Virus record (IMG/VR): IMGVR_UViG_3300017963_000189
Length of the DNA: 64,000 nt
Direction: 5' to 3' (one strand)
DNA from: a virus
Taxonomy: Duplodnaviria > Caudoviricetes
How positions within the stretch are numbered: position 1 is the stretch's first letter; every line of letters starts with the position of its first letter. The position numbers and the translations under genes were made by a program. The notes under the pieces were generated by a model. That model was not told where the DNA came from and made no database searches. It saw only the letters and a list, made by a program, of their open reading frames with translations. Shown piece after piece: positions 960 to 54,359 of this stretch.

Positions 960-3758
960 TTACCCAAATTTAATAGAACCAAGTATTTGATTTATAGGGG
1001 CAAACGTTCCGGTCAACTTATAAAGTTTATCCTTATACATAAATGTAATTCCTTCAGTTGGCACTATAGCATCAAATCCACCGATTGCATTCAATCTATC
1101 AAGTTGTACTTTCAACTTTTCCATCTTCTTTACATCATTCGCCGTTTCAAGTTCCTTTATCGTAGAGTCCAATTCTTTCTTCATTCGTTGTTGTGACGAT
1201 TCTGGGGCGACCGCAAGAAATTCATTCAAATTCTTTAACACCTGAGCACCTAACTCCAAAAATAATAATTCAAATGGTTGTAAATTCTTCTTAACTTGAA
1301 CAGCATGTTTCGTCTTGTCATACTTTAACGCCCAATCCAAAAACTTCTTGTCGTCTATTTCCTTTTTCATATCGTTGACCTTGTATGACTTGTCATTGTA
1401 CGCCCAACGTTTTATCAAATTCGTCAATACACTGTTTGGAAGTTTATATTTCTTCTTTTTCGCCTCTTTTGTAATAAAATCTTCCCACCATTTTTGATGA
1501 TACATAATGATTAAATCACTATCTTTTAATCCATATTTACTTTTTAACTTATTTAACCTATTATTGAACTTCGATTTTTGTTTTGAAAAATCTTGTGACT
1601 TTGGTAATGTGATAATTGGATTTTTTGAAAGTTTGAAATTCTCTTGAACCTCTTGATTTATTTGACGTATCATTCCATCTAACATTCTCGCTGATTCAGT
1701 ACTTCCGCCCACAGGATTTCCATCTTCATCATATTCAATCGATCCGTGAAAGATTAAAATAGGAAAATCATAAGGTACTACATTCGTTGTTGCTGGATAA
1801 ACTACTTCAATGTTCATGAAATTTTTACCTTCATCAAATACTTTTCTTCGTTGTTTTTCACTCAACTTTGATATAGCATTTTCCATATCTTTCATAGCAA
1901 ATGTAAACGCATCATGAATCGCACCACGTCCGGCAAACATATCACTTATTTGTTGTGTCGTAAGGGCTTCCGCTCCAAAATTTTTGATGTGTCCTTTGTT
2001 TCTTGCAGCGATTAATTTTCCATCTTTCCACGAAACCATAATGTTTTGACCATCTATTTTTTCTTGTACATTTTCAAGGCTTCCCTCAAGAGCCGTATCA
2101 ATCATTGTTTTTAAGTCGCCAAAAGTTAAATCCCAATCATCAAATGGATGGGCAAGATGTCCAAACGCACCGCCTTCATTCAATACTTGTTTGTCGGTCA
2201 TTACATTGTTTGTCCACCATTCTTTTGAAAAAATACTTTCCTCTAATGGTTGTGATGCGTCACTCGTATCTTGTACTAATGGTTCATGAGTCGCCATTTC
2301 TTTCTTTGGATCATCGATGATATTATCTTTCTTCTTATCACCTAATAACCAATCAACTACCTCATATCCCAAACGATTGGCGATGTGATCCATGTGTGAT
2401 TTGTATTTCGCTATTGGATCAGGATAAGTTGTGTCTCTTACTCCCACGTCACCAAATGAAACATCACTTACATGATCATATTTATATCTTTGATCAGCAT
2501 ATTCCTCTTTATCACCAGCTAAATAATCTACAATCTGCCATCCTAACTTGCCAGTTATTTCGTCCACGTCTCTATGATAATTGTTTGGATGTTTATAGAA
2601 TGTGGCTGGCCCGTCGTCAACGGAAGCATCATCCGCTTGAGTTACCTCAAGTAATAGTTGTTTTACATTTACTTCACTTAAAAAATCCTCTATTACGCTT
2701 GTCGCCAAGATTACACTCTCACTAAGTTTATTCGTGATCAAATCAAATGTTTTTTGATCAAATTTTCCATAAAGTTTTTTGTATAAAGCTTTCTTTCCCT
2801 TTTCACTTAATTGATCACTACCAAATAAATTTCTTAGTTGTGTTCCACTTATATTCTTTCCTGCTACATCTATCTTGAGTATAGGAGCAGTAATGTAATA
2901 ACCCTCTTGATCAAATCCTTTTACATTTTTTCCGGTCCACGGTTTAAAATATTTTCCACCAAGGCGACCAGCATCTTTTTCACTAAATACCGTCACATAA
3001 GCAGTTTTACTTGGATCATATTTCTTTTTAATTTCTACAGGATTAAATGGATTTTTTACTTTAACTATATTACCCTTTGGTATATCAAAGTTTTTAGAAA
3101 TTATTTGTTTCTTTTCCATAAAGTTAAAAGGCGATCTTCCTGGCTCAACTTTATCAGATGTACCGATAAAAGTATTCTTCTTTCCAAACTTTTTCGCTAA
3201 TAAATCATACATAGAATAATGACCTTTATGAAATGGTTGAAATCGACCTGCAGTTACAGCAACTACGTCCTTTACTTCGTTTTCTTCCTCTTTCACTACC
3301 ATTTTCTTCGGATTCGCCAACCATGAATCATTACCAAATCTACCCTCTCCAAGTTGTGAAGCACTATCATCAAAAGTCGTTAACGCTTGTTCTAATGGTA
3401 AATCTACTTTCGTTACTGGAATGGTGTAATCGTCGCCATGTACTTCTTTATAGGCTAACCATCTATGATGTCCATCAAGTATCTTTCCCTCTTTTGATAC
3501 AAATAAAGGATGTGTTACCCAATCAGTTTCCTGTATTTTCTTTTTTAAACTCTCAAGTTTCTCCGGTATATAATCTTCTTGAGTCGGTTTTAAATCACTA
3601 CATTTAGCATTTCCTTGTTCATATCCAATATCATTTTCATCAAAGATTTTCAATACCTCGTCCACATCCTTGCCCTTGACCTGAGGCATATCTTTCCTCT
3701 CGATCTCTTGTATCATTTCTAAAATTATCGTTTCACTAAACTTCTTTATGTTATCCAT
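960..3758 (-). CDS. multidomain protein: ParB/Srx-like + HIGH-type nucleotidyltransferase + unknown domain + ATP-dependent ligase-like domain
   Basis: DLKPTQ...ILDGHHRW (ParB-like); GRFQPFHKGH...ISGTQLR (cytidylyltransferase-like); EKIDG...EGITF..LYKLT (ligase motifs I, IV, V). Confidence 0.75.
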   Translation of the reverse strand: MDNIKKFSETIILEMIQEIERKDMPQVKGKDVDEVLKIFDENDIGYEQGNAKCSDLKPTQEDYIPEKLESLKKKIQETDWVTHPLFVSKEGKILDGHHRWLAYKEVHGDDYTIPVTKVDLPLEQALTTFDDSASQLGEGRFGNDSWLANPKKMVVKEEENEVKDVVAVTAGRFQPFHKGHYSMYDLLAKKFGKKNTFIGTSDKVEPGRSPFNFMEKKQIISKNFDIPKGNIVKVKNPFNPVEIKKKYDPSKTAYVTVFSEKDAGRLGGKYFKPWTGKNVKGFDQEGYYITAPILKIDVAGKNISGTQLRNLFGSDQLSEKGKKALYKKLYGKFDQKTFDLITNKLSESVILATSVIEDFLSEVNVKQLLLEVTQADDASVDDGPATFYKHPNNYHRDVDEITGKLGWQIVDYLAGDKEEYADQRYKYDHVSDVSFGDVGVRDTTYPDPIAKYKSHMDHIANRLGYEVVDWLLGDKKKDNIIDDPKKEMATHEPLVQDTSDASQPLEESIFSKEWWTNNVMTDKQVLNEGGAFGHLAHPFDDWDLTFGDLKTMIDTALEGSLENVQEKIDGQNIMVSWKDGKLIAARNKGHIKNFGAEALTTQQISDMFAGRGAIHDAFTFAMKDMENAISKLSEKQRRKVFDEGKNFMNIEVVYPATTNVVPYDFPILIFHGSIEYDEDGNPVGGSTESARMLDGMIRQINQEVQENFKLSKNPIITLPKSQDFSKQKSKFNNRLNKLKSKYGLKDSDLIIMYHQKWWEDFITKEAKKKKYKLPNSVLTNLIKRWAYNDKSYKVNDMKKEIDDKKFLDWALKYDKTKHAVQVKKNLQPFELLFLELGAQVLKNLNEFLAVAPESSQQRMKKELDSTIKELETANDVKKMEKLKVQLDRLNAIGGFDAIVPTEGITFMYKDKLYKLTGTFAPINQILGSIKFG

Positions 3759-3759
3759 A

Positions 3760-4314
3760 TTATTTTCCTACTTTTTGATACAACTTATCTTTTATCTTTG
3801 GATTTATTTCTATCTTTTTCGCCTCTAAATAATCCAAGGCTTTCTTGTATTTTAATTGTTGTTTTGGTGAAGGCTTATCACTCAAGTTGTCCTCTAAATC
3901 TAATAACTTTATATCAAACGCGGTTGGCGACATCTTAGCCAATTTGTAAAGATATGTAGAATAATCTATACCTTTATCATGTGACATAATCGTTACTAAC
4001 TTAGCAATCGTTCCACCAAATAACTCTTTTATCCTCTTTAGAGTCCTTTGTGGATTTTTAGAATCTTCATACGTATCATGTAATATAGCAAGAATTTGAT
4101 GTTTCTTTGATAACCCTCTCTTTTTTGCGCGGTGATACACCCGCATTGGATGTACCATATAGGGCAACGGAGATTTCTTTCTCCATTGACCGGAATGAAC
4201 GTCACGAGCTAAATCAATAGCTTGTGTGACTTGATCTATTTCTACTAACGCAATATTGAAACGAAAGTCGTCATATTCTTCGCTTATTAATTGACGTATC
4301 GATTCTCTTAACAA
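3760..4314 (-). CDS. RelA/SpoT-type HD hydrolase (Mesh1/small alarmone hydrolase-like)
   Basis: HSGQWRK..PYMVHP..V, AILHDTYED, IKLLDLEDN. Confidence 0.8.
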   Translation of the reverse strand: MLRESIRQLISEEYDDFRFNIALVEIDQVTQAIDLARDVHSGQWRKKSPLPYMVHPMRVYHRAKKRGLSKKHQILAILHDTYEDSKNPQRTLKRIKELFGGTIAKLVTIMSHDKGIDYSTYLYKLAKMSPTAFDIKLLDLEDNLSDKPSPKQQLKYKKALDYLEAKKIEINPKIKDKLYQKVGK

Positions 4315-8186: not shown

Positions 8187-9056
8187 TTATTTTACTTTCA
8201 TCTTTTTTAGTCGCCTTTTTAAGGCAAATCTATAATCATCTTTCTTTACCCACGTTCCTTTGATTGGCGATTTTCCTGAAGGCTCCCATTTGAAGTATAA
8301 TAATCTATCAACTACTCCATCATCTTTTTGACCATCAGCAACATAATTGTGAAACGCATTACTCATTTCTTTAGCATAGTTTACTATAATAGGAACACCT
8401 ACGCTACGTCCTTCATGTTCCTTTCTCCATTGATCACGCTGTATCGCTAACTCCGGAGATATGTGTAAACAAATAATCGTATTATGAAACCCTTTCTCTT
8501 TTGTTTTTTCTAATCGGGCTAACATCTTGTCAGATTTAGCACCGACAGTATCAATGATTAAAATATTTCCTGCACTCACTATTTTTGTTTTGAATAAATC
8601 TTTTTCTTTAGATTTCGCCAAATCTCGTATGTCAAAATATGTGGCATAATACGGCCTATAAAATGACTTATAAAAATATCGTAATCCCTTTTTACCATTC
8701 ATTTGCCACCACTCAAATGTTAAAGGAAATACTACTTTTTTTCCATCATTATCTTTATATTGAGTTTGTTTTACAAAAAGATCAATGTCTTGTGGCGATC
8801 CTTTAGATTTTTCCAACCAATTAAAATGTTTCTTCGCCGTTTCATACTGGGCAGCTAAAACTTGTTTGTCCGAATTAGTCACCTTATATCCACTAAAACC
8901 GGGAATATATCTCGTTATCTCATTATTAATGAATGTAGATTTTCCGGCGCCAGGAAGCCCCATGAGAACAATACATTGTTTTCCAATGTCCTCTTTGAAC
9001 TCATTGAGAACTTCATTTATCAACTCTCGTATTAGTTCCCGCATATTATTCCCCAT
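8187..9056 (-). CDS. P-loop kinase (AAA_33/zeta-toxin/polynucleotide-kinase-like)
   Basis: IVLMGLPGAGKST, LIIDT, lid-like AIQRDQWR. Confidence 0.75.
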   Translation of the reverse strand: MGNNMRELIRELINEVLNEFKEDIGKQCIVLMGLPGAGKSTFINNEITRYIPGFSGYKVTNSDKQVLAAQYETAKKHFNWLEKSKGSPQDIDLFVKQTQYKDNDGKKVVFPLTFEWWQMNGKKGLRYFYKSFYRPYYATYFDIRDLAKSKEKDLFKTKIVSAGNILIIDTVGAKSDKMLARLEKTKEKGFHNTIICLHISPELAIQRDQWRKEHEGRSVGVPIIVNYAKEMSNAFHNYVADGQKDDGVVDRLLYFKWEPSGKSPIKGTWVKKDDYRFALKRRLKKMKVK

Positions 9057-9283
9057 TATCTATTATATTTTTCACGATATTTAGCATGTAAAAATGCTAT
9101 ATACATTGATCCACTACCACCAGTATTACTTACCGTCATTCCATCAAGAATATACCCACCAGAAATTAAATCAGTTAATTCCTCAGAAAAACTTCCTGCT
9201 CCATTCAAAGTAGCATTGGATATTGTTGCGGTTGTGAAGTCACTTGCAGCATCATATGATCCTGTTTGAAAAGTTATCGACAT
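9056..9283 (-). CDS. hypothetical protein (75 aa)
   Basis: ORF track; coupled by TAATG overlap to the next gene. Confidence 0.6.
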   Translation of the reverse strand: MSITFQTGSYDAASDFTTATISNATLNGAGSFSEELTDLISGGYILDGMTVSNTGGSGSMYIAFLHAKYREKYNR

Positions 9284-9285
9284 TA

Positions 9286-10734
9286 TTATTCTCCTATTGT
9301 TTTATACATTCTATCTGTTATAGCAAAAGCTTGTTTTTTCGTCAATCCGGGATTTCCTAACAACTCACTATCTATTGCTTTTAATAATTGTCCTATTATC
9401 ATCCCGTGTGTTTTATTATTTATTTTATATCGTTTCATTATATCATTTCCATCTATCGGGCGTTTCAGCACATCTGGCTCACTTTCAAGGGCTTTCAATC
9501 TATCCTTCAACTTTGGGATTTGTAACGGCATATTATAATCATCCGCATGACTTATATTGTCAGCATGAATTAAATCCAATGTTGTTTGTAAGTGATCTTT
9601 CATATCATTTTTTAACTTCCTCAAAGTCTTATCAGTTACTCCCTCACTCTCTCCACCATATTGTTTTGTCCTCATATGATTTTGTATAGCTTTTTTAACC
9701 TTAATGACAACTTCTTTTGGATATTTTAATCGTCGTAAAATAGCTTCCGCCATTTCCGCACTCACATCTTCGTGTTCGTAAAAATGAACTTCGTTATCAA
9801 CTACCTTTTTGGTTGTCGCCTTTCCAATGTCGTGAAATAGGGCGGCGAGGCGAGTCTCTAACTCAGGTGGAGTATTCTTCAATACTTCCAATGTGTGCTT
9901 CATTGCGTCAAATTTGTGATACTTATTTTGTTCTAATCCCTTCAACTCGTCTAACTCATGAGCAACATACTTATTCAAGTTAGTCATTTGTAATAAACGA
10001 ACCGCTTTGTCAGGAGCTTTACTTATCATCATTTTACTTAACTCACTCATTACCCTCTCAGCACTTATCGTCTTTAACATATGTGAGTTACGCTTTAACG
10101 CTTTGATCATGAACATAGGTAAATCCCAACCATACTTTACGGTAAACCGGATCGCTCTTAACATCCTCAATGGATCATCTTTGAAGATGACATCAGGATC
10201 TAATGGAGTTTGGACAACACCTTTCTTTAGATCAGTTTTACCCATTCCTGTAAGATCAAGGATTTCGCCAGTCGTTAAATCTTTCAGGAGTGAGTTTACT
10301 GTAAAGTCTCGGCGTTCAACGTCATCCTTCAGGGATCCTGGAGAAACCTTTGGTTTTCTATCTCCAAGTTTATATTGTTCCTTACGAGTCATTACGGCTT
10401 CAATCTCAATCTTACTCAAATCATATCCTTTATGATTCACTCCATATAAACGAAACGCAGCAGTACCGAATTTAGGATATACAACAGGATTCGAACCTTT
10501 CTTGTATATCTTTAGTTCCTTTGTAATCCACTCGGCAAACTTTATTCCACCTTGCGGAAACTCGATAACAATGTCTATGTCCTTTGGATTAAGACCGAGT
10601 AACTCGTCTCTTACATATCCACCTGCAAGAAATACTTTTCCTTTCCACTTTGATTTCTTTACCATTTTAGAAAGAAAATCTACCGCAGCTCGATCTATCG
10701 CTCCCTCTTGTAATAAGTTTTTTAGTTTAATCAT
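9286..10734 (-). CDS. cca: class II CCA-adding enzyme (tRNA nucleotidyltransferase) with HD domain
   Basis: GGYVRD.LLG..PKDIDI, DDVERRDFTVN, DDPLRMLRAIRF, ALFHDIGK; N-terminal MIKLKNLLQE leader. Confidence 0.9.
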   Translation of the reverse strand: MIKLKNLLQEGAIDRAAVDFLSKMVKKSKWKGKVFLAGGYVRDELLGLNPKDIDIVIEFPQGGIKFAEWITKELKIYKKGSNPVVYPKFGTAAFRLYGVNHKGYDLSKIEIEAVMTRKEQYKLGDRKPKVSPGSLKDDVERRDFTVNSLLKDLTTGEILDLTGMGKTDLKKGVVQTPLDPDVIFKDDPLRMLRAIRFTVKYGWDLPMFMIKALKRNSHMLKTISAERVMSELSKMMISKAPDKAVRLLQMTNLNKYVAHELDELKGLEQNKYHKFDAMKHTLEVLKNTPPELETRLAALFHDIGKATTKKVVDNEVHFYEHEDVSAEMAEAILRRLKYPKEVVIKVKKAIQNHMRTKQYGGESEGVTDKTLRKLKNDMKDHLQTTLDLIHADNISHADDYNMPLQIPKLKDRLKALESEPDVLKRPIDGNDIMKRYKINNKTHGMIIGQLLKAIDSELLGNPGLTKKQAFAITDRMYKTIGE

Positions 10735-11183
10735 TAAAATATTCTCTTTAATATAAATTTATATTGTGGATTTTTTTGTTGAACTTTCTTTACACTTTTT
10801 TTAAGATATTTCATTAATTGCATTTCTTTAAACCAATCAACATCAGGATAAGTTGATTCACTCAAATAAAATGTATTAGAATCACCTTTTCTTTGCCAGT
10901 AAATATATCCCTTTTTAATCATGTCGCCAAACGCTTTCGGCCAATTCCGTGTATCCCAATCAGCAGACTTATCCTTTGTATGACCCTTATTTTTTAACCA
11001 TCTTTCTAAATCCATATGAATAGCAAAATATTGATCGTCCATTACATATAAATTACCTTGTGGATCGCTCAATCCTCTCAATGCAGGCGCCATACGTTTT
11101 ATGGATTTGGGATTTTTGTATACTTCTATACTACCAAGATTACCAAGTAATTCTTCTTTTATTAATTTTTTTAGTTTAATCAT
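10734..11183 (-). CDS. leader-bearing paralog family protein, copy 1
   Basis: MIKLKKLIKE leader; YKNPKSIKRM...IH...GYIYWQR...FYLSES shared with 11188-11634 and 45533-45976. Confidence 0.8.
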   Translation of the reverse strand: MIKLKKLIKEELLGNLGSIEVYKNPKSIKRMAPALRGLSDPQGNLYVMDDQYFAIHMDLERWLKNKGHTKDKSADWDTRNWPKAFGDMIKKGYIYWQRKGDSNTFYLSESTYPDVDWFKEMQLMKYLKKSVKKVQQKNPQYKFILKRIF

Positions 11184-11187
11184 AATT

Positions 11188-11634
11188 TTACCAATATGGT
11201 GGCTCAGGTATAAACTTCAAGCCAGGATTTTTCGCCTTTATTTTCGGTATATGCTGTTTTATTATCTTTTGGTATTCCTTCCAATCATATCCGCCATCTT
11301 GCATTACCACATTGACAGATTCACTCAAATAAAACTTATTCGTATTTCCGTTACGTATCCAACCAATGTAACCTCTTTTCATTCCTTTCGCTATTTTATC
11401 CATGTAATAAAATATTTCAGATGGAATTTTTACTCCAAATGGTTTTAGGTATTTCTCTATATCTGCGTGAATTATATTGTAATAATCAACTACATAAAAA
11501 TCTCCACTTGGAACACTAACACCTTTTATATCATCATCCATTCGTTTTACACTTTTAGGATTTTTATATATCTCATATCCATCTTTAGTTGTTCCTACAA
11601 AATCCTCTTTTATTAATTTTTTTAGTTTAATCAT
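11188..11634 (-). CDS. leader-bearing paralog family protein, copy 2 (start corrected to 11634)
   Basis: ATG at 11634 gives MIKLKKLIKED, matching the paralogs, and overlaps the upstream stop. Confidence 0.8.
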   Translation of the reverse strand: MIKLKKLIKEDFVGTTKDGYEIYKNPKSVKRMDDDIKGVSVPSGDFYVVDYYNIIHADIEKYLKPFGVKIPSEIFYYMDKIAKGMKRGYIGWIRNGNTNKFYLSESVNVVMQDGGYDWKEYQKIIKQHIPKIKAKNPGLKFIPEPPYW

Positions 11635-13384
11635 CGCCAAACTCCTTCTTTCCATATCTCGCTGATTGTGGTTTTCTTATCATAAACTCACTCTTGTATA
11701 CTTTTATTGGACGTTTTTCAACAGACTCGGCGAAAATTACGATGTCGTCTAATAATTTCTTGTGTCGTTGTAATGATTTTTTGGTAGCAGTAAATCCTAT
11801 TTCCCCTTTTCTACCGGAAATTCTTACCCAACCGTCCTTCATCGCTTCGTTGATAACCGCTTCATATATTATAGACCACTCATTAGCATCAGCATGAGCT
11901 AATCGAGATTTGAATGGCTTAAACTTACCTACATTTTTTACTAACCAATCAACGTGTTCTAATTCCGGAACAGCATGAACTTGACCCTTTGGATCAACTA
12001 AACCATTTCTACCTTTAGCAATTTTTACCAACTCGTCCGATTGATCTTCATATAAAATAATTATTTCACGTATCAAATCTTTGAATCTAATTACTCCATC
12101 ACCTAAACCCTTACGCATTCTATGACGAGCTGCGGCAGGAAGTTCGCCTTTCTTGGCGCCCCGTACATCTTTCTTCGATCCCATTCCTTTAGGTACTTGC
12201 TTGTCCTTTTTAAGCATTGGTGAAACCGCATGAGATTTTCCCTTTCCAACTTGTTTTTCACTTCCTTGATAATCTTCTAACGGTATTAATTTTTGAGCCG
12301 TTCCTGCAGGAAAATCATCCCACGCGCCCCAGCGTTTATCTTTTGGATCATATATTTTTCCACCTTTATCTAAAATTTCTATCTTATATCCATTATTCCA
12401 AATCTTTATCGTTTTTCCATGTTCTTCTTTAAATGCATCTTCAATCTTAGATACAATAGATTTCATTTGGTTCTTTTTTGGAAATTCCCAGAATGTAATA
12501 ACTTTCTTTTTATACCAAAGGCGACCCGGAAATTTCAATGATTTTCGTGATAACCAACCATCTGGCGATTGCATGTCTCCGTGTGTATATCCTTCACTAC
12601 CGACATACATTTTATTTTTCCACATACCAAAAGGTACGGCATTTCTATGCCATTCTAAATTATATTTTCCTATACTTACTCCATCAGGATTTTCTAATAA
12701 TAATTCTCCAAGTTTTATTGTTCCATCACCTAAACCTTTACGAATACGATGTCTGGCAGCAGCAGGTGTCTCTCCCTTTCGTTGTCCTTTTACCTTTTTC
12801 TTTGATCCCATGCCCATAGGAACTTCGCGTCTACCTTTCTTGAGTAACGGAGATTTCATATGTGAGATTTCTTTACCACGTTGTTTTTGACTTCCCTCAT
12901 ACTTCTCTATTGGAATTAACATCAAATCACCTTGTACATCGTATGCATCCCATGAAGGCTCTCTCGGATCGTCTTCTCGTGAATCCGGACGATATATTTT
13001 TCCACCTTTATCTATTACCTCTACTTGCCATCCGTTATTCCAAATCTTTAACCCTGACCCACGTTCTAACTTAGATATAATACTCTTGATTTGATTTTGT
13101 TTTGGAAATTCCCAAAATGATATGACTTTATCCTCGGCCCATAACCTACCGGGATATTTGTAATCTCCCCGCAAATATGGGAAATCATCATAATCTTTTT
13201 CCTTTATTTCGCCACGATCTAATAAATGATCACGGATCGCGAAATGAACTCCACCAGGATCACTGAAATAGGCTTTACCTTTGTGTATTCCAAATGCGTG
13301 AGCGTCACCTTCAGTATAACTTAAACGTGTATTACCTACATATACACCATCAGGGTTCTCTCTCAACAATTTTTTTAGTTTCAT
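11627..13384 (-). CDS. three-unit protein with internal duplication, each unit starting with a leader-like motif
   Basis: aa 1-221 and 222-430 are homologous (ENPDGV...PGRLW...FWEFPK.NQ...GMGSKK...AARHR.RKGLGDG); third unit starts VIRFKDLIRE. Confidence 0.8.
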   Translation of the reverse strand: MKLKKLLRENPDGVYVGNTRLSYTEGDAHAFGIHKGKAYFSDPGGVHFAIRDHLLDRGEIKEKDYDDFPYLRGDYKYPGRLWAEDKVISFWEFPKQNQIKSIISKLERGSGLKIWNNGWQVEVIDKGGKIYRPDSREDDPREPSWDAYDVQGDLMLIPIEKYEGSQKQRGKEISHMKSPLLKKGRREVPMGMGSKKKVKGQRKGETPAAARHRIRKGLGDGTIKLGELLLENPDGVSIGKYNLEWHRNAVPFGMWKNKMYVGSEGYTHGDMQSPDGWLSRKSLKFPGRLWYKKKVITFWEFPKKNQMKSIVSKIEDAFKEEHGKTIKIWNNGYKIEILDKGGKIYDPKDKRWGAWDDFPAGTAQKLIPLEDYQGSEKQVGKGKSHAVSPMLKKDKQVPKGMGSKKDVRGAKKGELPAAARHRMRKGLGDGVIRFKDLIREIIILYEDQSDELVKIAKGRNGLVDPKGQVHAVPELEHVDWLVKNVGKFKPFKSRLAHADANEWSIIYEAVINEAMKDGWVRISGRKGEIGFTATKKSLQRHKKLLDDIVIFAESVEKRPIKVYKSEFMIRKPQSARYGKKEFGDD

Positions 13385-13581
13385 TACTTGATCTCTCTTG
13401 ATAGTTTAGCTATATCAATCATATATGGTTTTAACATTTCTAAAGCTTTCTTATATGTCTCAGGATCTTTATCCTTTAACGCTCTCTTAATAAGTGATAA
13501 AGATAATTCGGCTTTTTGATTTATCACTTTTATATGACCTTTCGCCTTTCCACTTACCAAATCTTTTAATTTAGGTATCAT
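13384..13581 (-). CDS. small hypothetical protein (start corrected to 13581, MIPKLKDLV)
   Basis: ATGA overlap with the upstream stop; GGAG SD. Confidence 0.6.
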   Translation of the reverse strand: MIPKLKDLVSGKAKGHIKVINQKAELSLSLIKRALKDKDPETYKKALEMLKPYMIDIAKLSREIK

Positions 13582-14096
13582 AGTCCTAACTCCTTGAGTT
13601 TCTTTATCGTTGATGAGGCAGACTTGTGTAAAATCCCAATTCCACCACGTGCCTTCCATTGTTTTATATTTTCATCCATATCGTCAATCAATATAGCATC
13701 TTTCTTAGCAAAATCTTGTTTATCTCTCGCCCGTCGAAGTATCAACTCAACATTACCAAGATTACCCTTGACCCACATATGCTTGCCACGTGGGCTCTCA
13801 GGTATTGTCCTTGCAGGAGCGGATAAAATTTTTACATTCTTGTTCTTGATGTAATCCCATAATTTTTTACCGTCCTTCATCCAAGGCATTTCACTCCAAT
13901 ACTTGAGTCCACCTTTACCGATTTCGCTCCAAAAGGCTTCCGTTCCCTCTTTCTTCTCATATTTTCGACCATCTTTTATTCCAGTAAAATTCTCAAGTTG
14001 TTTGTCGAAATCAGTAAGTACGCCATCCATATCACAATAAACGGTATACTTATATTGATAAATATATTCTTTTATTAGTTTCGATAATTTAAGCAT
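13578..14096 (-). CDS. HAD-family 5'(3')-nucleotidase (NT5C-like)
   Basis: YCDMDGVLTDF, ILSAP, LIDDMDEN; MLKLSKLIKE leader. Confidence 0.8.
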   Translation of the reverse strand: MLKLSKLIKEYIYQYKYTVYCDMDGVLTDFDKQLENFTGIKDGRKYEKKEGTEAFWSEIGKGGLKYWSEMPWMKDGKKLWDYIKNKNVKILSAPARTIPESPRGKHMWVKGNLGNVELILRRARDKQDFAKKDAILIDDMDENIKQWKARGGIGILHKSASSTIKKLKELGL

Positions 14097-15125: not shown

Positions 15126-16052
15126 TTATGGTTCTTCATTCTTTTCTGCATTTTTCGCCCATATTCCATTGGCAAAATATGCATCTATATCCTCAACATC
15201 TAAACATATTGTATTTACTTTCTCATTATGAAATGTTATACTTTGTATTTCCCATTCCGTTTCATCTTCTTTAAATAATTTGTCGCCAACTCTAAGATTT
15301 ATTACCCTTATCCACGACCATTTATTATCTCTTTTTGTAAATATTCTATGTTCAAATGTTACCTTTAACTCATTTAATGACCCAGAATTTATTGTAAAAT
15401 ATCCTTGCCAAATACTTGGCTTAACTTGTCTAACTTCAGAATAATCTATATGCCCATCAAAACTTTCCGTTGACCAAGTATTTAAAAATTCTCTCCCTTC
15501 AGGATGTTTATCAGCTGGAGTTGGTATTCCGGCATTATAAGTTTTTATCCAATCTCCAACTTTTACATCTTCCATATTTATTATTGAACCATCTTGTTTC
15601 TCAACTTTTGTTCCATACAAAAAACATCCACCACCTGCTGGTTGAACTGATACACCCAATGACAAATCAAATGTTGTATAATTACTCATATTACCGGCAT
15701 CAGTAACATAAACCGTATCCGCAAATTGATCATCCCAATTATATACTGCTTGATCACCTTGATTTAGTATTGTACAAGATGATTCTCCAATTTGATTTGT
15801 CCACGAATAATATTGTGTAGCATCAAAAACTCCAGACGCAATCCAACCGCCTTGTAGAGTCCACACTATAGCATATGTTGTATTTTGTAATTCCGTAGGA
15901 GTTGTGTCTCCTGTTATACTTCCTGCAGTCAAACCAAAATTACCTTCATTTAATTCAATTTCGCCGGAAATCCAACCGCCTTCTGTGGCGACACTTATAA
16001 AATCAGCCGCACTTTGTTGTAAATCTGCTAACTCGCTAAGACCGATCGCCAT
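15126..16052 (-). CDS. probable virion protein with C-terminal Hint (intein-like) domain
   Basis: CFLYGTKV...VKVGD, TFEH, LRVGD, LDVED...YFANGIWAKN. Confidence 0.8.
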   Translation of the reverse strand: MAIGLSELADLQQSAADFISVATEGGWISGEIELNEGNFGLTAGSITGDTTPTELQNTTYAIVWTLQGGWIASGVFDATQYYSWTNQIGESSCTILNQGDQAVYNWDDQFADTVYVTDAGNMSNYTTFDLSLGVSVQPAGGGCFLYGTKVEKQDGSIINMEDVKVGDWIKTYNAGIPTPADKHPEGREFLNTWSTESFDGHIDYSEVRQVKPSIWQGYFTINSGSLNELKVTFEHRIFTKRDNKWSWIRVINLRVGDKLFKEDETEWEIQSITFHNEKVNTICLDVEDIDAYFANGIWAKNAEKNEEP

Positions 16053-21309: not shown

Positions 21310-21368
21310 AAAAATCTCCATTACACATAGTTATTCACATATAAATATATGTAACGAAGATTATTACA

Positions 21369-24536: not shown

Positions 24537-25419
24537 ATTCCTTTACCACTCCTATAATTATTCGTTCAAATGTATCTCCCATAATCTCTAATGATAAGTT
24601 TTCCTCTATCAATCGTTTATTTATTTTTCCTTGTCGCCAGTCATATTTTTGTATTAGATTTTGTAAACCATTCAAATCATATTTACATTGTGTATACCAA
24701 CCTGAACAATTACCCCTAAGAAATTCTTTGAAATTCCATTCATTTACCCAACCGTCACAACCATTCACACCATAAACCAATGATGGGCGACCACACGCCA
24801 TTCCCTCATATATTGATCGTCCATAACCTATTACAAAATCAACCATGTTGATCGCCTCACTTACATTGGGCATCAACCTACCATGATGTAACTCTATTCC
24901 CAAATTTTCACATACAATATTTAAAGCCGTTGGTACATCACCACGATAAAGATATAACGCAGAAAATGGTTTTACACTTATACTTGTGTTTGAATAAAAT
25001 TCATTTATGTTTACTCCATTATAAACAACTTTGTCACAACCTAAATCCTCTTTTACTCTATCACTTATTCCAACATGACATTCATGTTTGTATTTTGGAA
25101 AATACCATTCTTCCATTGATCCATGACTTACAAATATAACAGGTACATTTACATTCTTTATCATATCTTCATGAATACTATAATTCAATATAATTACATC
25201 ATAATCACCAAACCATGTTCCTTTATCATCAAACATATTATTGATTATTTTTTCATAAAAGACAGTATATCCTGGCACATAATTTATTTCATTATCTTTA
25301 TCAGGTGAAATGTGAAAATGAACTTGATGTCCTTTCTTTATCAACTCATTTGATAAATCGTTAGCCCATAAATTAACACCGGTTAACCTATTATGTCCTA
25401 ATATAATCAATATTCTCAA
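24460..25419 (-). CDS. GT-B glycosyltransferase (GT4-like)
   Basis: N-terminal MRILII...G...W...L..EL...GHQV; HVGISD...YNGVNINEF; GRSIYEGMACGRP. Confidence 0.7.
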   Translation of the reverse strand: MRILIILGHNRLTGVNLWANDLSNELIKKGHQVHFHISPDKDNEINYVPGYTVFYEKIINNMFDDKGTWFGDYDVIILNYSIHEDMIKNVNVPVIFVSHGSMEEWYFPKYKHECHVGISDRVKEDLGCDKVVYNGVNINEFYSNTSISVKPFSALYLYRGDVPTALNIVCENLGIELHHGRLMPNVSEAINMVDFVIGYGRSIYEGMACGRPSLVYGVNGCDGWVNEWNFKEFLRGNCSGWYTQCKYDLNGLQNLIQKYDWRQGKINKRLIEENLSLEIMGDTFERIIIGVVKEYDERQDTGKLRRVENHLSYGGHSYT

Positions 25420-26378
25420 ACTAATCCTACCTTATATTTCATTAATTCAGGAAAATCCATTCTCGTAGTTTGTTGTTTTATGACCCTAACCATTTCCATA
25501 AATCCTAAATCCGCCGGGTCTTTCGCTCCAAGATTTACAACGTGTGTTTCTATTCCCTCTTTTAAAAATGTCTCAACTATTATAGCTATATTTTTCTTAG
25601 CATCTTCGTCTAAAGATATATAAATTTTTGGTGGGCGATTTGTAAGTATTTTATCGTGTAGTTTCTCCATAATCGTTTTACCAAATAACGGTATCGCGTT
25701 CCGGCGAATGGCAATCGCATCGAACACTCCCTCAACTAAAACTATTGGTATGTTCCAATTTATCATATTCTCAAACCCTATTATGTCCTTTGTTATTTCA
25801 GGATTTTTATACTTGATATATGCGTCCTCATAATAACTACGAGCAGAAAAGAAATTCAATCTATTATCTTCATCATATGATGGAATGATTATTCTATTTT
25901 TATATTCGCCTTCTTTACAAAATCCTATTTGATACTTTATTATATCTCCCCAACTTATCTTCCTCTTATTCAAATAGACGGCAGCGCGGCGAAACTCTAA
26001 ATCGTCAGGTGTCCCTGGGTAGCCCCAAATAGGTAAAAATTCTTGTGGTAAAGATAAAACTTTCTTCGTCTCGTCTTTCTTCTCAATACTATAATGTCTC
26101 TCACCTAAAATGTCGCTGAGTTCCTCAAGCTGAACCGGAGTCGCTTTGAACCTCTTGAATAACGTCCAAAGATTTTTTCCTTTCGTGTTGTCATAATCTT
26201 GACAGACCCAACACGCCCATTTGCCGAACTTCGGCGATGATCTATTTATATTGATTGACAATTTCCTCTTGTAATGATTACAAGACGGACAAAAATATAA
26301 ATAGTCGCCTTTTGATCCTTGTTTCTTGTTCGAACCTAAAAGGGATTCTAATAATTGTAATAACTTTATTTCACTCAT
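25416..26378 (-). CDS. DNA primase (Zn-binding domain + TOPRIM)
   Basis: CPSC...CWVC; RIIIP; KYKNP; LVEGVFD; SLDED. Confidence 0.9.
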   Translation of the reverse strand: MSEIKLLQLLESLLGSNKKQGSKGDYLYFCPSCNHYKRKLSININRSSPKFGKWACWVCQDYDNTKGKNLWTLFKRFKATPVQLEELSDILGERHYSIEKKDETKKVLSLPQEFLPIWGYPGTPDDLEFRRAAVYLNKRKISWGDIIKYQIGFCKEGEYKNRIIIPSYDEDNRLNFFSARSYYEDAYIKYKNPEITKDIIGFENMINWNIPIVLVEGVFDAIAIRRNAIPLFGKTIMEKLHDKILTNRPPKIYISLDEDAKKNIAIIVETFLKEGIETHVVNLGAKDPADLGFMEMVRVIKQQTTRMDFPELMKYKVGLV

Positions 26379-29918: not shown

Positions 29919-29957
29919 AAAAAACCGCCTTTCTATATATAAATATAAAAAAGCGGA
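29919..29957 (-). terminator. terminator/RBS-sequestering hairpin enclosing the late motif
   Basis: CCGCTTTTTT pairs with AGAAAGGCGG, followed by T6; ATATTTATAT lies in the loop. Confidence 0.6.
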
Positions 29958-30019: not shown

Positions 30020-31312
30020 CTAATAGTCAAGCTTCACCTTGATTAGCGCCTCGCGATCAAATGACTTCAATAATGGAACACTTACTTTAGCGACCGCAAG
30101 AAGTTCATTAGATTCATTATAAAGACCAACCGTAGTAATATATGAATGTGGATCACCAATAAATGTAGGTACTTTTAATGTACCATCAGATGATGTATAA
30201 TAAGTTGGATTATTACTTAAATTATAGTCTTTATTCTTTATTCTTACAAAATAATTCGTTGATGTTATTACTTCCTCGTTTCTCGCCGTAAAATATGAAG
30301 CAGATTTGATCATTTCATATAACTTGAAATGATTGTCGGCTAATGTAGTTGACGCAGAACCGGTCGAAACAAACGATCCCATATGTGCTTCTAATGCGTT
30401 TGGATTGAGAATAATAAGTCCACGATCAGGATAAAATAATCCATATCCACCGGACGCTTCACTTGCAGCATCCTTGTAAACAGTCGCTGTAGCACCAACA
30501 TTCAAACTACCACTAACTACATTAAAAAGTCGTCCACCTTGAGATACCGCTTGATCAAATTTTTGAGCACTATCATCAATCAAACGAATCACAGTACTAT
30601 TATTCGCTAAACTGGCTTGCAATCTCAATTCCCAATTACCCGCATCCATTTTTTGTTTCAAACGAGCACGTTGTAAATTAATTACAAAAATTTGATCACT
30701 ATCCCAACTATTGGCGAAAGTAAAAGTTTCATCTTCAGGATCAAGTAACATATTTCTATATTGAGAATAAATAGCTTTTGTTGGTTCTTTTGATGTGTCC
30801 AATACACTTATTCTTGGAGCACCACCACCATTTTGATGTCCATACGCAACAGCAAATTGAACTTCAGCACTCGCAGATATATTTGGATCAAGATTATAAA
30901 TATCATAATACCAATCACCAGTACTTGAAGATTGAGCAGTAGAACGATAAAATTGAATCAAACTACCAGTATCACCGGTCCACATACCGGTTGTTGTTCG
31001 ACGGCTCATATTCTCAACAATATCTTCGCCACCAAAATCGGTATACACTTTCAACGTTGTTGTTGGACGCACTTCTCTCGGAGGAGTAGTTATCGGTCTT
31101 GCTTCCATTGCCCTATTTATAATTTCAGTCCAATATTGTTCAGGAACACCTGCTCCATCCAACACACTTCGTGCTTCCGACGAATCAGTTATATTATTAG
31201 CTTGTAAAATACTTACTGCCGAATCTACTTTTTGCGCGGGTGATATGGGCGCTCTACGCCACATCATACCTATTTGTCTTTCCGCACTTCTTCTTTGCGT
31301 TGCTGTTGCCAT
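30020..31312 (-). CDS. putative baseplate/tail structural protein
   Basis: YITTVGLYNE.NELLAVAK.S.PL.K.FD.EALIKVKLDY; located in the structural block. Confidence 0.6.
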   Translation of the reverse strand: MATATQRRSAERQIGMMWRRAPISPAQKVDSAVSILQANNITDSSEARSVLDGAGVPEQYWTEIINRAMEARPITTPPREVRPTTTLKVYTDFGGEDIVENMSRRTTTGMWTGDTGSLIQFYRSTAQSSSTGDWYYDIYNLDPNISASAEVQFAVAYGHQNGGGAPRISVLDTSKEPTKAIYSQYRNMLLDPEDETFTFANSWDSDQIFVINLQRARLKQKMDAGNWELRLQASLANNSTVIRLIDDSAQKFDQAVSQGGRLFNVVSGSLNVGATATVYKDAASEASGGYGLFYPDRGLIILNPNALEAHMGSFVSTGSASTTLADNHFKLYEMIKSASYFTARNEEVITSTNYFVRIKNKDYNLSNNPTYYTSSDGTLKVPTFIGDPHSYITTVGLYNESNELLAVAKVSVPLLKSFDREALIKVKLDY

Positions 31313-32005: not shown

Positions 32006-32074
32006 TTTATTGTTCTCCTATTATTACATACATTTCTATTCATATATAAATATAAGTAATGAAAATATTTACTT

Positions 32075-37441: not shown

Positions 37442-39103
37442 TTACCTTATTACTCTAAATGTATAATTTTTGTCATATACAGTTTCTATATTTCCTTTTA
37501 CTACTTTAAATAATATTCTATACAATCTTTCTGGCTCAAGTCCATTCAAGAATAAATCAAAATAACTTCCAGTCGCATCCACAGAAATTTGAGTATATGT
37601 TGACCACGGCATAACTTCGTCCTCACTCCACGCGTCACGTATAGCATAATAAGACGAAGATAAGAAATAAGTGTCTCGTGTGTACGCCCAACTTTGTGTT
37701 ACAAATGTCTTTCTTGGATAACGTTCTCTAGCATTTACTCTAAACTTTATCTTAGAATCTTGTACATATTCATCTTGTAAATTGTCAAGATAAATAACGA
37801 AATCCTCTCCAGGTACAACATCCATTAGTTGTGTTGTCGTTGTTGATTGTGATATTGAACTCGATAAACTTGAACTTGTCCACGTATATGATGTCGTTAC
37901 CGCATCAAAACTTTGACTTGTATAATATCCCGCTACAGGATTATACGTCCACATAGCATCACTGGATGTTAATGAAGCTGAACTAAAATATACACTCGCA
38001 CTTTCAAACTCCGATCCAAGACTTGCTGTATAAAAATTAACAATAGTAAAACTCGATGTCAAACTACTACTAATCCATGTATTACTTTGACTTATACTTT
38101 CACTTATACTTGAACTTGTATATGTATCAAATGAAGCGGTTGTAAATGTATAATCTAAACTTGAACTACGATATAAACCAAGGCTGCTCGTGTAAGAATA
38201 AATAGATTGTGTCACCCACGAATAACTTTCACTATACCATGTGTTCGCATCATCACTTTGAGTAAAATATCCACTTCCAGTTCCTACCCCACTTCCAGTA
38301 AAAAAACTTGAAGTATTATAATATATTATAGGATTTGTTGTTTCATTCGTCACCGTTGCAGAACTCGACACACTTTGACTTATACTTGACGTTGTATATG
38401 GCGACCAAGCATAATCTTTCCAAACCACTTCTAATCTTGGACGATAAATTGTGTGTGTTTCTTTTGAAAAGAATTGAAGATTTCCTTGATTCAAAATACT
38501 TTGTTCAGCAGCATTATCTCTCTTTATCAAAAATCCATAATTATCTATTGACCCACTCAACCAACCTTCAACAATATTTGTTACATCAACGTGTAAATCC
38601 GTTGTTTGATAATTAAATGATTGTGATGCTTCATATTTTGTTGGATTTGCTAACGTTCCACTAAAATATGCTCCACCAGGACCACCAGCCGAACCGGACG
38701 ACCACGCACTACCAGTCACACCAGATATAGTTACACCATCACGAAGATTCCAACTTACACCGGTTGTTGTAATCGGGCTATCAGCTCTCTTACCATTACC
38801 CATTTGCCAGGATTGTGATACCGGATAAACATATACACTATATGTTACAGGAATTTCTACAGCTTCATCAGTGTAAAGATTCAAGTAGTATTTCATATCA
38901 CTACCACTTGTTTCGCCGGACGCTAACGAGGCAGAAAAGTCGTCCAAATCAAATTGTACCAAAATACGTGAATTGAATGGAGCGTCACCGAGCGCGTGTA
39001 CAAGTTGTTTCTCTAACTCCAATATTTGATCCATTCCAGTATTTTGATGTATACTGTCCTCATAAATCGTGGCGTCTTTCGAAGGAAAGATAAAATAATG
39101 CAT
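37442..39103 (-). CDS. putative virion protein with Ser/Thr-rich insertion
   Basis: KDATIYE...NTG.D.ILE, NYGFLIK, FFSKETHTIY.P.L (DNRLRE-like); S/T-rich aa ~235-425. Confidence 0.65.
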   Translation of the reverse strand: MHYFIFPSKDATIYEDSIHQNTGMDQILELEKQLVHALGDAPFNSRILVQFDLDDFSASLASGETSGSDMKYYLNLYTDEAVEIPVTYSVYVYPVSQSWQMGNGKRADSPITTTGVSWNLRDGVTISGVTGSAWSSGSAGGPGGAYFSGTLANPTKYEASQSFNYQTTDLHVDVTNIVEGWLSGSIDNYGFLIKRDNAAEQSILNQGNLQFFSKETHTIYRPRLEVVWKDYAWSPYTTSSISQSVSSSATVTNETTNPIIYYNTSSFFTGSGVGTGSGYFTQSDDANTWYSESYSWVTQSIYSYTSSLGLYRSSSLDYTFTTASFDTYTSSSISESISQSNTWISSSLTSSFTIVNFYTASLGSEFESASVYFSSASLTSSDAMWTYNPVAGYYTSQSFDAVTTSYTWTSSSLSSSISQSTTTTQLMDVVPGEDFVIYLDNLQDEYVQDSKIKFRVNARERYPRKTFVTQSWAYTRDTYFLSSSYYAIRDAWSEDEVMPWSTYTQISVDATGSYFDLFLNGLEPERLYRILFKVVKGNIETVYDKNYTFRVIR

Positions 39104-39603
39104 TATTTATTCTCCAAATATTTTTCAACAGCGTCTTTAACAACCTCTGTCCATTGTTTTAAGCTTGAAGTTCCCAATTTGAGATTCCAACCTTTATCTT
39201 TAGCAAGTTTGTCAATCTCTTTTTTATACCCTTTTTTATCAGTATCACCGTATGTAGAAAGAGCATCCTCTTTAAATTTATCGATTTCTCTTTTAGCAAA
39301 AATAGGATAATCATAGTTTAAATCTTTATATGAACCGGGCACCGCTCCACGATCATCTTTTGAAAGTTGAAACCAAGGCACTCCAGTCGAATAAATATGT
39401 CTAAGCCATACATACCCACCCGGTACTTTGATTGAATATAATTGTCCACGACCATGATATTTAATTGAATCACTACCCAATTCTTTCGCCACTATTTTGG
39501 CTACGTGTTTACCATATTTTCTCATTATCCAACGGCTAACATGAGTGTCTACATAATCTTTCATTGGTGCCGTACCTTCTACTAAACTTGTTAATTTTAT
39601 CAT
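39103..39603 (-). CDS. leader-bearing hypothetical protein
   Basis: MIKLTSLVE N-terminus. Confidence 0.7.
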   Translation of the reverse strand: MIKLTSLVEGTAPMKDYVDTHVSRWIMRKYGKHVAKIVAKELGSDSIKYHGRGQLYSIKVPGGYVWLRHIYSTGVPWFQLSKDDRGAVPGSYKDLNYDYPIFAKREIDKFKEDALSTYGDTDKKGYKKEIDKLAKDKGWNLKLGTSSLKQWTEVVKDAVEKYLENK

Positions 39604-41517: not shown

Positions 41518-41790
41518 TTATCCTCGCATTTTTGATAATTTTAATAAAGTTTTCATTTCATCTTTAGTAACATTGACAGGTTTATTTGTATTCCTTACCA
41601 TTTCGTTACCAACACATCTATAAATTAATTCTTTCTCTTTATCAGATAATTTATTGAGTAAAGTTTTCTTTATTGTAATACTTTTTCCTGTCGGGCTTGT
41701 AATTTTAACATAAGATGATTCTAAACTTCGCATCCAACTTGAATTATCACACTTTACGGTTACTTCCAAAAGATTTTTTAACTTTACCAT
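41518..41790 (-). CDS. leader-bearing hypothetical protein
   Basis: MVKLKNLLE N-terminus. Confidence 0.7.
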   Translation of the reverse strand: MVKLKNLLEVTVKCDNSSWMRSLESSYVKITSPTGKSITIKKTLLNKLSDKEKELIYRCVGNEMVRNTNKPVNVTKDEMKTLLKLSKMRG

Positions 41791-43536: not shown

Positions 43537-43863
43537 TTATCCAATATATTCTATTTTATCATCACTCAATGTATAATAGTCGCCATTTTTATCTAAAACA
43601 GAAACTTCATCATAAAACATCCCACCTCTTACGTCTACTCTTTTTATTTTCTCAATAGTATGATATTCCCAATCATGACGACCCGTACCAGCTTTAGATG
43701 CTTTTGCTCTTATAGTTTTTCCCAATAACAATTTATCAAGAAAATCTTCATACATTTTTTGATGTTTATTTAACCAATTATCAATAGTCTTGTTCAAATC
43801 AAATTTTTTTCCTTCATTTAATTTGTTTCCGCGAAATATTTTGTTCCAAAGTTGTTTATCCAT
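43537..43863 (-). CDS. hypothetical protein with MDKQLW...KLNE leader
   Basis: Leader resembles that of 61763-62266. Confidence 0.65.
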   Translation of the reverse strand: MDKQLWNKIFRGNKLNEGKKFDLNKTIDNWLNKHQKMYEDFLDKLLLGKTIRAKASKAGTGRHDWEYHTIEKIKRVDVRGGMFYDEVSVLDKNGDYYTLSDDKIEYIG

Positions 43864-45532: not shown

Positions 45533-45976
45533 TTAAACTATTGTTTCTAATACAAACTTGTATTTTGGATTTTTTGATTTAACTTTTTTAGCATACTTTT
45601 TCAAATAAGGCATAAGTTCATGTTCATCAAAATACATTGTGTCACTGAAATCGGTTGATTCACTCAACCAAAATTCATCGGTTGACCCTTTCCTTTGCCA
45701 ATTTATATACCCATTTTTCATACCATCAACTATTCTTGTTTTTAAATTCATATTAGGTACTTTATATCCATTTTTATTTAACCACTCAGCAAATGCAGAA
45801 TGAATAACATTCCAATTATCATCAATAACAAATAAATCTCCATTTGGAAAACTTATCGCCCTTAATTCTTTCGCCATACGTTTGATTGATTTGGGATTCT
45901 TGTACACTTCGTAACCTTGATGTGTAGTTCCAACAAAATCTTCTTTCAATAAATCCTTCAATTTTATATTCGCCAT
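45533..45976 (-). CDS. leader-bearing paralog family protein, copy 3
   Basis: MANIKLKDLLKEDFVGTT...YKNPKSIKRM...IH...GYINWQR...FWLSES. Confidence 0.8.
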   Translation of the reverse strand: MANIKLKDLLKEDFVGTTHQGYEVYKNPKSIKRMAKELRAISFPNGDLFVIDDNWNVIHSAFAEWLNKNGYKVPNMNLKTRIVDGMKNGYINWQRKGSTDEFWLSESTDFSDTMYFDEHELMPYLKKYAKKVKSKNPKYKFVLETIV

Positions 45977-46006
45977 AGACTATCTCCATAAAATACAATA
46001 TCTCAC

Positions 46007-46016
46007 ATATAAATAT
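46007..46016 (-). promoter_or_regulatory. putative late promoter at the head of the virion block
   Basis: ATATTTATAT immediately downstream of the terminator at 46022-46058. Confidence 0.55.
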
Positions 46017-46021
46017 ACACA

Positions 46022-49679: not shown

Positions 49680-49728
49680 AATTTAAATCTCCCATTCATT
49701 TAACTTACCAACTATTATAAATAAAAAG

Positions 49729-49802
49729 AGCGGAATAACGGATTCGAACCGATACTTCCACGTTGGCAACGTGGCGTGCTAACCGTTGAACACCAATCCC
49801 GC
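49729..49802 (-). tRNA. tRNA-Gly(GCC), no encoded CCA
   Basis: GCGGGAT/ATTCCGC acceptor, CCACG-TTGCCAA-CGTGG anticodon arm, TTCGAAT T-loop, U73 followed by CT. Confidence 0.9.
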
Positions 49803-50133: not shown

Positions 50134-50155
50134 GAAATGTTCTCCCTATGTGTTG

Positions 50156-50484
50156 TGGAGTCGGCGGGAATTGAACCCGCGTCCAAAATATTTCAAAATC
50201 CAACTTCTACGATTATAGTTTGATTTTGTTATTTTACGTCACGAAAAAACCAAACAAAAGTTGTGACAACGAGTTTTGATTTACTTTGAGTTGTCGCCCT
50301 CAAAGGTTCTACCGATTATGACATCACTTTACCCAATATCGGTGTCTTGGAGTGACGGCTTAATTCGTTGTGATTAAGCAGCTAATTGTAATTCGTTGCC
50401 AGTTATTTTAGGCTTTTGGATTTCCCACTTCCCAGTGAATCGCTATTAAATCTCTCAGTTATCCTGTCGAATCCGATCGACCCC
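50156..50484 (-). ncRNA. ssrA: tmRNA, tag (A)GNELQLAA, no encoded CCA
   Basis: 5' GGGGTCG...GGATTCGAC; 3' GGACGCGGGTTCAATTCCCGCCGACTCCA; G3.U70 pair; ATAACT then GGC AAC GAA TTA CAA TTA GCT GCT TAA (50374-50400). Confidence 0.92.
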
Positions 50485-54279: not shown

Positions 54280-54359
54280 AATATACAAAATAAAAACATC
54301 TTTGTCAAATGTTTTTTTACTTGATATATAAATATACGAAAAAATAGCTTCATTGTCAA
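54280..54359 (-). promoter_or_regulatory. tandem sigma70-type promoters TTGACA-N17-TATATT
   Basis: 54331-54359 and 54280-54308, both with 17-nt spacers. Confidence 0.75.

Follow-up and report, generated by a model that had tools for sequence, protein, structure and literature searches.

Why would a phage begin a CCA-adding enzyme, a nucleotidase and several small proteins with nearly the same ten residues? The question is raised by a 64,000-nucleotide stretch of viral DNA (IMG/VR record IMGVR_UViG_3300017963_000189; Duplodnaviria, Caudoviricetes), hereafter the window, in which a run of genes at positions 8,187–14,096 and several genes further along start with variants of MIKLKxLLxE. A preliminary description had listed these N-termini and proposed that they send proteins into the capsid; all of them were found at the starts named, on the minus strand, which carries every gene of this A/T-rich window (~35% G+C). 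The source is an uncultured marine phage related to T4, and a jumbo phage, because the longest contig carrying one of the window's proteins measures 309 kb. We consider it likely that the leader, called the class A tag below, is a portable capsid address that is clipped off, in the manner of the capsid-targeting sequence (CTS) of T4.

The class A tag was defined as M-[ILV]-K-L-x-x-L-[ILV]-(x)-E, and the window was scanned with its core, K-L-x-x-L-[ILV]-(x)-E. The tag, 9–12 residues long, begins eight window proteins and ends in [LI]-x-E in 8 of 8; all eight lie in the late (virion) half, which runs from ~46 kb down to position 1 and holds the gp25-like and gp6-like genes of the baseplate together with long fibre-like proteins, a block of recombination genes and a series of small ones, the 46–64 kb part being given to early and metabolic genes. 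Among the 70 window proteins the core occurred nine times in the six N-terminal residues, for which composition gives an expectation of 0.013, and three times elsewhere (20,240 positions; Fisher P = 1e-13); a pair of these three are junction copies within a 585-aa protein. By region, the N-terminal matches comprised nine among 41 late-region genes and none among 29 early-region genes. The ninth match, MSEIKLLQLLE at 26378, heads a DnaG-type primase and is probably a coincidence, not a member. The bearers form six cargo families (CCA enzyme, 149-aa family, 585-aa protein, NT5C nucleotidase, 166-aa protein and 90-aa protein), so that the claim of a motif shared by unrelated domains stands with one correction, namely that the proteins starting at 11183, 11634 and 45976 are paralogues.

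The comparative evidence is the strongest, and one part of it concerns the 482-aa protein encoded at 9286–10734 (minus strand), in which MIKLKNLLQE forms residues 1–10 (bases 10705–10734). At family level this protein is a class II tRNA nucleotidyltransferase of the CCA-adding type with an HD domain, for which CCA addition is predicted: it matched Pfam PolyA_pol (PF01743, 1e-19), PolyA_pol_RNAbd (PF12627, 2e-10) and HD (1e-9) as well as PHROG 2244 'tRNA nucleotidyltransferase' (1e-54), and it has GGYVRD (GGxVRD), DIDIV (the DxD metal site) and an RNA-binding neck; PF13735 was also found in close homologues. We examined its 120 closest homologues (55–94% identity), 111 of which have at least 30 residues before GGxVRD. 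Hydrophobic-x-Glu stood at the same point, 26–27 residues ahead of GGxVRD, in 107 of the 111, and that Glu was followed by G (77), S (16) or A (7) in 100 of them. The leader before this fixed junction was of class A in 54 of the 107, M(T)IGLRYLLKE in 14, very short (MDLLLE and similar) in 12, drawn from other 10–45-residue families in 25 and a long N-terminal domain in 2, which amounts to at least four unrelated leader families. Because the leader can be swapped it is no integral part of the enzyme, and because the junction is kept it is no random extension; the simplest reading of these homologues would be a conserved processing site preceded by an exchangeable address. CCA homologues of a 735-kb megaphage and of Lak phages have no tag. 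The CCA domain is C-terminal in two longer ORFs (L004:10001–11392 and L011:17682–21395, the latter from the 735-kb phage LR756501.1), with 320 and 773 residues upstream, and the junction in LR756501.1 reads NMLNE-AITPEKV, again hydrophobic-x-Glu. A protease-family search in five short contig fragments with CCA homologues gave no match, a negative that carries no information because these are fragments.

Copies of the tag also occur inside proteins. The 585-aa protein (11627–13384, minus strand) consists of two tandem ~215-aa modules and a C-terminal domain, and each of these parts is headed by a class A motif, MKLKKLLRE at 13358–13384 (the N-terminus itself), IKLGELLLE at 12692–12718 and IRFKDLIRE at 12065–12091. 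The two modules are 49% identical, as a tandem duplication, and the whole is probably a polyprotein. Homologues of the module keep RKGLGDG-[VI]IKLKDLIKE and then continue into differing C-terminal domains, the CCA enzyme among them; in P0058, one of the two long forms mentioned above, the module is joined to the CCA enzyme through an internal GVVKLKDLLTE. The internal copies are in frame and have no start codon, and internal translation starts at these junctions were rejected, the preceding residue being V, I or T and no start being conserved.

Several observations place the signal in the peptide and outside the folds that it precedes. The DNA upstream of tagged genes is not conserved and the tag codons vary from gene to gene, synonymous codons changing while the hydrophobic pattern and the Glu are kept; on this ground the tag is a peptide-level signal, selected as a peptide. 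A DNA repeat or cassette border was rejected, since upstream DNA is not shared, and so was a secretion signal, for which the tag is too short and too charged. As proposed, the tag lies beyond the catalytic domain: solved CCA-adding enzymes (PDB), the cellular ones included, align with the 482-aa protein from residue 14–18 at the earliest and so do not align with the tag, and the Pfam head domain begins at residue 35. In the AF2 model of the 149-aa protein (mean pLDDT 91.5), residues 1–10 average 64 and confidence jumps to 96 where the first strand begins at residue 11; in the first module of the 585-aa protein, residues 1–11 have pLDDT values below 50. A Foldseek search with the 149-aa model returned no match. 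The best weak fold matches of this model (VIA Z 2.3–3.6) were all NFACT-type domains (Rqc2/NEMF, RqcH, CCDC25), from proteins of ribosome quality control that contact tRNA or nucleic acid; the likeness was set aside, the best Z of 3.6 being too weak.

To place the tag among related phages, IMG/VR was searched with a degenerate DNA pattern for class A, which matched at least 120 stretches (mean locus 8.4 kb), bearing out the expectation that similar leaders are common in relatives; the counts that follow are among the matches listed. Nearly every match (133 of 134) stands at the start of an ORF that is either 50 codons or longer or cut short by the end of its locus, and the 114 complete tagged ORFs formed 66 BLAST clusters, most of which had no Pfam match; the few matched cargoes included NUDIX, lysozyme, P-loop kinase and metallopeptidases. 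L4 and L7 are at least 90% conserved in the tag. Of the 120 tagged loci, 47 carried one or more T4-type head genes (terminase, portal, protease, scaffold or capsid). Where the protease was present, the tagged ORF lay between the portal and capsid genes in 26 of 26 loci and downstream of the protease in 24 of 26, often starting a few bases from its stop. Five long tag-bearing contigs were also inspected, four of which carried a T4-type portal and three the protease; a control with the pattern reversed matched nothing. In one relative of 27.8 kb (G007, IMGVR_UViG_3300024336_000041), a class A-tagged CCA enzyme and three other class A proteins are encoded alongside head genes for a gp21-type protease (E 4e-29), a scaffold and a T4-like capsid protein. 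From sequence, then, the tag exists, is modular, has a position-fixed junction that resembles a cut site and is associated with head gene clusters.

Two cultured phages, Microcystis phage Mel-JY01 and Flavobacterium phage immuto, are among the carriers, the tagged ORF of immuto lying at 24977 of MW353176.1. In the slot after the protease, the head-module protein bears a class A tag in IMG/VR cluster 1, and in Mel-JY01 its leader is class-B-like. Mel-JY01 also encodes, at 60276–60926, 60923–61105 and 62056–62718 of PP395634.1 (together L031:10277–12719), three class A-tagged paralogues with IISDRVWHLT after the tag, which are the most accessible case for virion proteomics. The scaffold protein of G007 (1280–2431) begins MEVKDDLLKE-AIA, like the second half of a class A tag followed by a Glu-Ala cut site; the corresponding stretch of the Mel-JY01 scaffold is DDLLKN, which lacks the Glu.

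A portal and a head protease of the T4 kind are encoded in the window's own genome as well. Contigs that encode exactly the window's proteins extend 18 kb beyond the window start, and this added part encodes the large terminase, the T4-type portal (PF07230), several small ORFs in a row that share leaders of other kinds, and the head protease. The protease, ~15 kb outside the window, is a 202-aa Peptidase_S77 (PF03420; L034:16500–17108) with intact ELDHP and SSRGLG, and it aligned to the T4 gp21 structure 5JBL with an E value of 1e-17; gp21-type proteases are likewise present in G007, Mel-JY01 and immuto. By these gene assignments the phage is of T4 type and encodes both a portal and a gp21-type protease.

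The timing of expression was approached through promoter-like sequences. A 13-nt motif, TATATTTATATRT, has 7 matches in the window against 1.55 expected, all on the coding strand and all intergenic (923–935, 21337–21349, 29935–29947, 32042–32054, 46005–46017, 54324–54336 and 62290–62302), and is probably the -10 element of phage promoters. Five of the seven copies precede virion-module genes and have no -35 box, and may be late-type promoters; the two early-region copies have TTGACA at the right distance (~17 nt). The copy at 21337–21349 (minus strand, TATATTTATATGT), without a -35 box, stands ahead of the packed gene run that contains 8187–14096, and between 22000 and 3000 we found no excess of terminator-like sites. 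The copy at 46005–46017 precedes the tagged gene that starts at 45976. The T4 late-promoter word TATAAATA showed no enrichment before window genes. Two RNA genes also lie in the early region, one for a phage tmRNA whose tag peptide is GNELQLAA (50155–50484) and one for tRNA-Gly(GCC) (49728–49802).

These observations can be assembled into a mechanism in which tagged proteins would be made late and the short amphipathic tag would dock its bearers onto the scaffolding core, to be enclosed as the shell assembles. The gp21-type head protease would then cut behind the Glu, where hydrophobic-x-Glu meets a small residue, and the mature protein would stay in the head with the DNA and probably enter the next host cell; the internal copies, in the 585-aa protein and in the fusions of relatives, would serve as cut sites that split polyproteins inside the head. 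Core binding, cleavage, presence in the virion and ejection are steps that we infer by analogy with T4. The T4 CTS comprises the first 10 residues, MKTYQEFIAE (PMC8442874), of which residues 4 and 7 bear on targeting and residues 8 and 10 on processing; the cut by gp21 falls after L/I-X-E (PMC9026906). The class A tag agrees in length and register, with ten residues and L4, L7, [LI]8 and E10 (Y4 and F7 in T4), and the likeness seen earlier is strengthened in that the tag ends in the L/I-x-E of gp21 and the genome has both a gp21-type protease and a T4-type portal. T4 internal proteins are diverse and have the CTS as their only common feature (PMC3012670); here, too, the tag sits on unrelated, fast-changing proteins of phages that have gp21-family protease, T4-type portal, scaffold and capsid genes. 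T4 tolerates large enzymes as cargo (PMC9026906, PMC8442874, PMC3012670), foreign ones among them (PMC9026906). Unlike T4, these phages have far more bearers per genome, and hundreds across the relatives, several leader classes in one genome, internal copies at polyprotein junctions, and nucleotide and tRNA enzymes as cargo.

Other systems resemble this one in part. In phiKZ-like giant phages a diverged gp21-type protease (phiKZ gp175, SPN3US gp245) cuts many internal head proteins after Glu, and a large mass of ejected proteins is packaged (PMC9026906, PMC10052503, PMC7411985). By these accounts the cuts in those phages follow a short Glu-ending motif, not a shared ten-residue N-terminal tag, and the phage studied here is of T4 type, with Portal_T4 and Peptidase_S77 at full score. 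The phiKZ-like cleavage motif is usually written S/A/G-X-E. The tag also recalls encapsulins, where a short terminal peptide suffices to load diverse enzymes into an HK97-fold shell; encapsulin cargo-loading peptides are usually C-terminal and uncleaved and bind the shell protein rather than a scaffold, and the compartment is cellular. As for the cargo, T4 Pnk and Rnl1 are tRNA-end enzymes that can undo damage from host tRNA-cutting defences; they are made in the infected cell and are not known to carry a CTS. The phage studied here, by comparison, encodes a tagged CCA-adding enzyme late, and perhaps a tagged kinase and HD protein too, which suggests that such enzymes are carried in ready-made.

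Several points weigh against a cleaved capsid address. Hydrophobic-x-Glu is a short motif. MIKLKxLLxE and MKTYQEFIAE share the pattern at 4, 7, 8 and 10 and not the residues, which makes the tag an analogue of the T4 CTS and no copy of it. The tRNA-Gly gene of the phage has no encoded 3' CCA, and the CCA enzyme therefore has a cytoplasmic job that needs no packaging; late synthesis and a tag would nevertheless make sense if the enzyme were carried into the next cell, there to serve the phage tRNAs from the outset. Within the window, the class A genes sit in the tail-fibre and baseplate modules, not in the head module, and a complete 207-kb contig with two tag matches had no match to a T4-type protease, portal or head gene. 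The last two points are also what would favour a docking or regulation peptide unrelated to the capsid (a chaperone handle, a degradation signal or another assembly address), in which the Glu would be no cut site. Such a peptide would leave unexplained why unrelated leaders all end in hydrophobic-x-Glu and a small residue at one junction, why tagged genes cluster beside the head protease and why internal copies fall exactly at domain junctions, and we regard it as improbable.

A role that stops short of delivery is unlikely to much the same degree. The tag would then be a propeptide processed by the protease, and its bearers would be components of the prohead core that are cut up and expelled or kept in the head, the enzymes acting inside the head or only before assembly. 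It fits this proposal that the tagged genes of relatives lie between the protease and scaffold genes, which is the place of the core proteins in T4, that T4 core proteins are degraded by gp21 (PMC9026906), and that many tagged proteins are small and of no known function. The 482-aa CCA enzyme, the nucleotidase, the NUDIX hydrolases and the lysozyme, on the other hand, have no evident part in building a core, and the T4 proteins that receive a single N-terminal cut (IPI–III, Alt) are retained and ejected (PMC8442874, PMC9026906). Far less probable than either is that the shared N-terminus arose from a feature of the mRNA or the translation start (A/T-rich early codons, a downstream box), from a recombination scar or from composition bias, even though the tag codons are A/T-rich (ATG ATT AAA CTA AAA ...) and genomes rich in A/T often have AAA-rich starts. 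The varying codons, the kept residues and the start-less internal copies together show that neither a DNA repeat nor a translation-start feature nor composition bias can be the main explanation; the internal copies at domain junctions, conserved and in frame, contradict it, as do the unshared upstream DNA and the low expectation from composition given above, and most highly expressed structural genes have no tag.

The remaining class A bearers are of several kinds. Directly upstream of the CCA gene lies that of the 149-aa protein (10734–11183, minus strand, MIKLKKLIKE), followed by its 148-aa paralogue with the same leader (11188–11634, minus strand), whose start at 11634 was chosen over an ATG at 11655 because AAGGAG stands 8 nt upstream of the former. 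The third paralogue, of 147 aa (45533–45976, minus strand), has the tag MANIKLKDLLKE and its own copy of the promoter-like motif, at 46005–46017; tblastn of this protein against cultured phages gave no match. Across the 33 members of the family (38–66% identity) M1, L4 and L7 are kept and E10 never varies. Profile comparison of this family with the module of the 585-aa protein gave a probability of 42%, driven partly by the tag itself. The 172-aa protein at 13578–14096 (minus strand) is a 5'(3')-deoxyribonucleotidase of the NT5C/HAD type, with MLKLSKLIKE ahead of its DMDGV motif (HAD motif I, DxDxV) at residues 22–26; its match to Pfam NT5C (PF06941) was just over the cut-off at 2e-5, and that to PHROG 2643 was 5e-25. 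The orthologous nucleotidase of phage immuto has another leader, which ends DLLLE at the same place. A 166-aa protein with MIKLTSLVE (39103–39603, minus strand) is encoded directly after the gp6-like baseplate wedge gene, and a 90-aa protein with MVKLKNLLE (41518–41790, minus strand) is inserted between the gp25-like and gp6-like baseplate genes, which are adjacent in immuto. A 430-aa protein (30020–31312) was considered as a capsid protein and rejected, synteny with immuto making it a protein of the baseplate/tail-fibre module. The tail-fibre region also encodes a 308-aa protein with a Hint/PT-HINT (intein-like) domain (15126–16052).

The looser forms once grouped with the tag were reassigned. 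The 65-aa ORF at 13384–13581 (minus strand) begins MIPKLKDLVSG, which is tag-like, and its membership is doubtful because it has no Glu. The leaders of the kinase and HD proteins, judged by their sequences, make up a second class (B) and are not loose forms of class A. The former belongs to a 289-aa P-loop kinase (Zeta-toxin/AAA_33 type by Pfam; 8187–9056, minus strand) with the class B leader MGNNMRELIRELINEVLNE, which reads MGNNMRELIRELINE, and the latter to a 184-aa HD_4-domain protein (3760–4314, minus strand) with MLRESIRQLISEE. The class B family, MKKSELRQIIREE, stands at the start of at least 13 small ORFs that in G007 fill the interval from the protease gene to the scaffold gene, and it is also found on ORFs between the portal and the protease in the window's genome. 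A class C leader occurs in the window as MDKQLWNKIFRGNKLNE and MDSKQWKEVLEKGKLNE (43537–43863 and 61763–62266) and, as MDKKTWNKILNENTLNE, on three small ORFs between the portal and the protease of the same genome (L034:14392–15435), all three forms ending L-N-E. Next to the HD gene, a 932-aa multi-domain protein (960–3758) contains a cytidylyltransferase-like HIGH domain. When the window's cargo was compared by BLAST with the 114 tagged IMG/VR proteins, the sole link was to this protein, whose residues 19–137 share homology with the C-terminal region of a pair of class A-tagged 342-aa proteins (L055, L109).

The principle of a capsid-targeting tag is already known from T4. Our literature search (MIKLKDLL, MIKLKNLL) retrieved no published description of this tag, nor did it find described its very wide use, the coexistence of leader classes, the copies at polyprotein junctions or the use on tRNA and nucleotide enzymes. 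Tentatively, and with more doubt than attaches to the tag as a capsid address, we suggest that marine and freshwater T4-type phages may possess a modular address code, in which interchangeable clip-off leaders (A, B, C and others), with carrier modules linked to their cargo through internal leader copies, load dozens of lineage-specific proteins into the capsid, and that this phage may carry a ready-made kit for tRNA maturation and repair. Were such a code in use, the injected protein set of an uncultured phage could be read from its sequence. The proposed kit would comprise the CCA-adding enzyme, the P-loop kinase, the HD hydrolase, the nucleotidase and perhaps the 932-aa protein, which is ligase-like; it could serve the phage's CCA-less tRNAs at once, or undo host tRNA-cutting damage, ahead of any phage gene expression.

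The fixed junction and swappable leaders on one enzyme family are unusually clean comparative evidence, and the reading can be tested in two cultured carriers. If the tag is a capsid address, the simple rule of a leader, hydrophobic-x-Glu and a small residue would give, for uncultured T4-type phages in their thousands, a list of what they bring into their hosts, a protein class that is otherwise invisible without virion proteomics and that in T4 includes counter-defence factors. It would also supply natural short loading tags for packing foreign proteins into phage capsids other than that of T4. For the biology of these phages, it would widen the idea of injected proteins beyond small inhibitors and ADP-ribosyltransferases, so as to take in tRNA-end and nucleotide enzymes.

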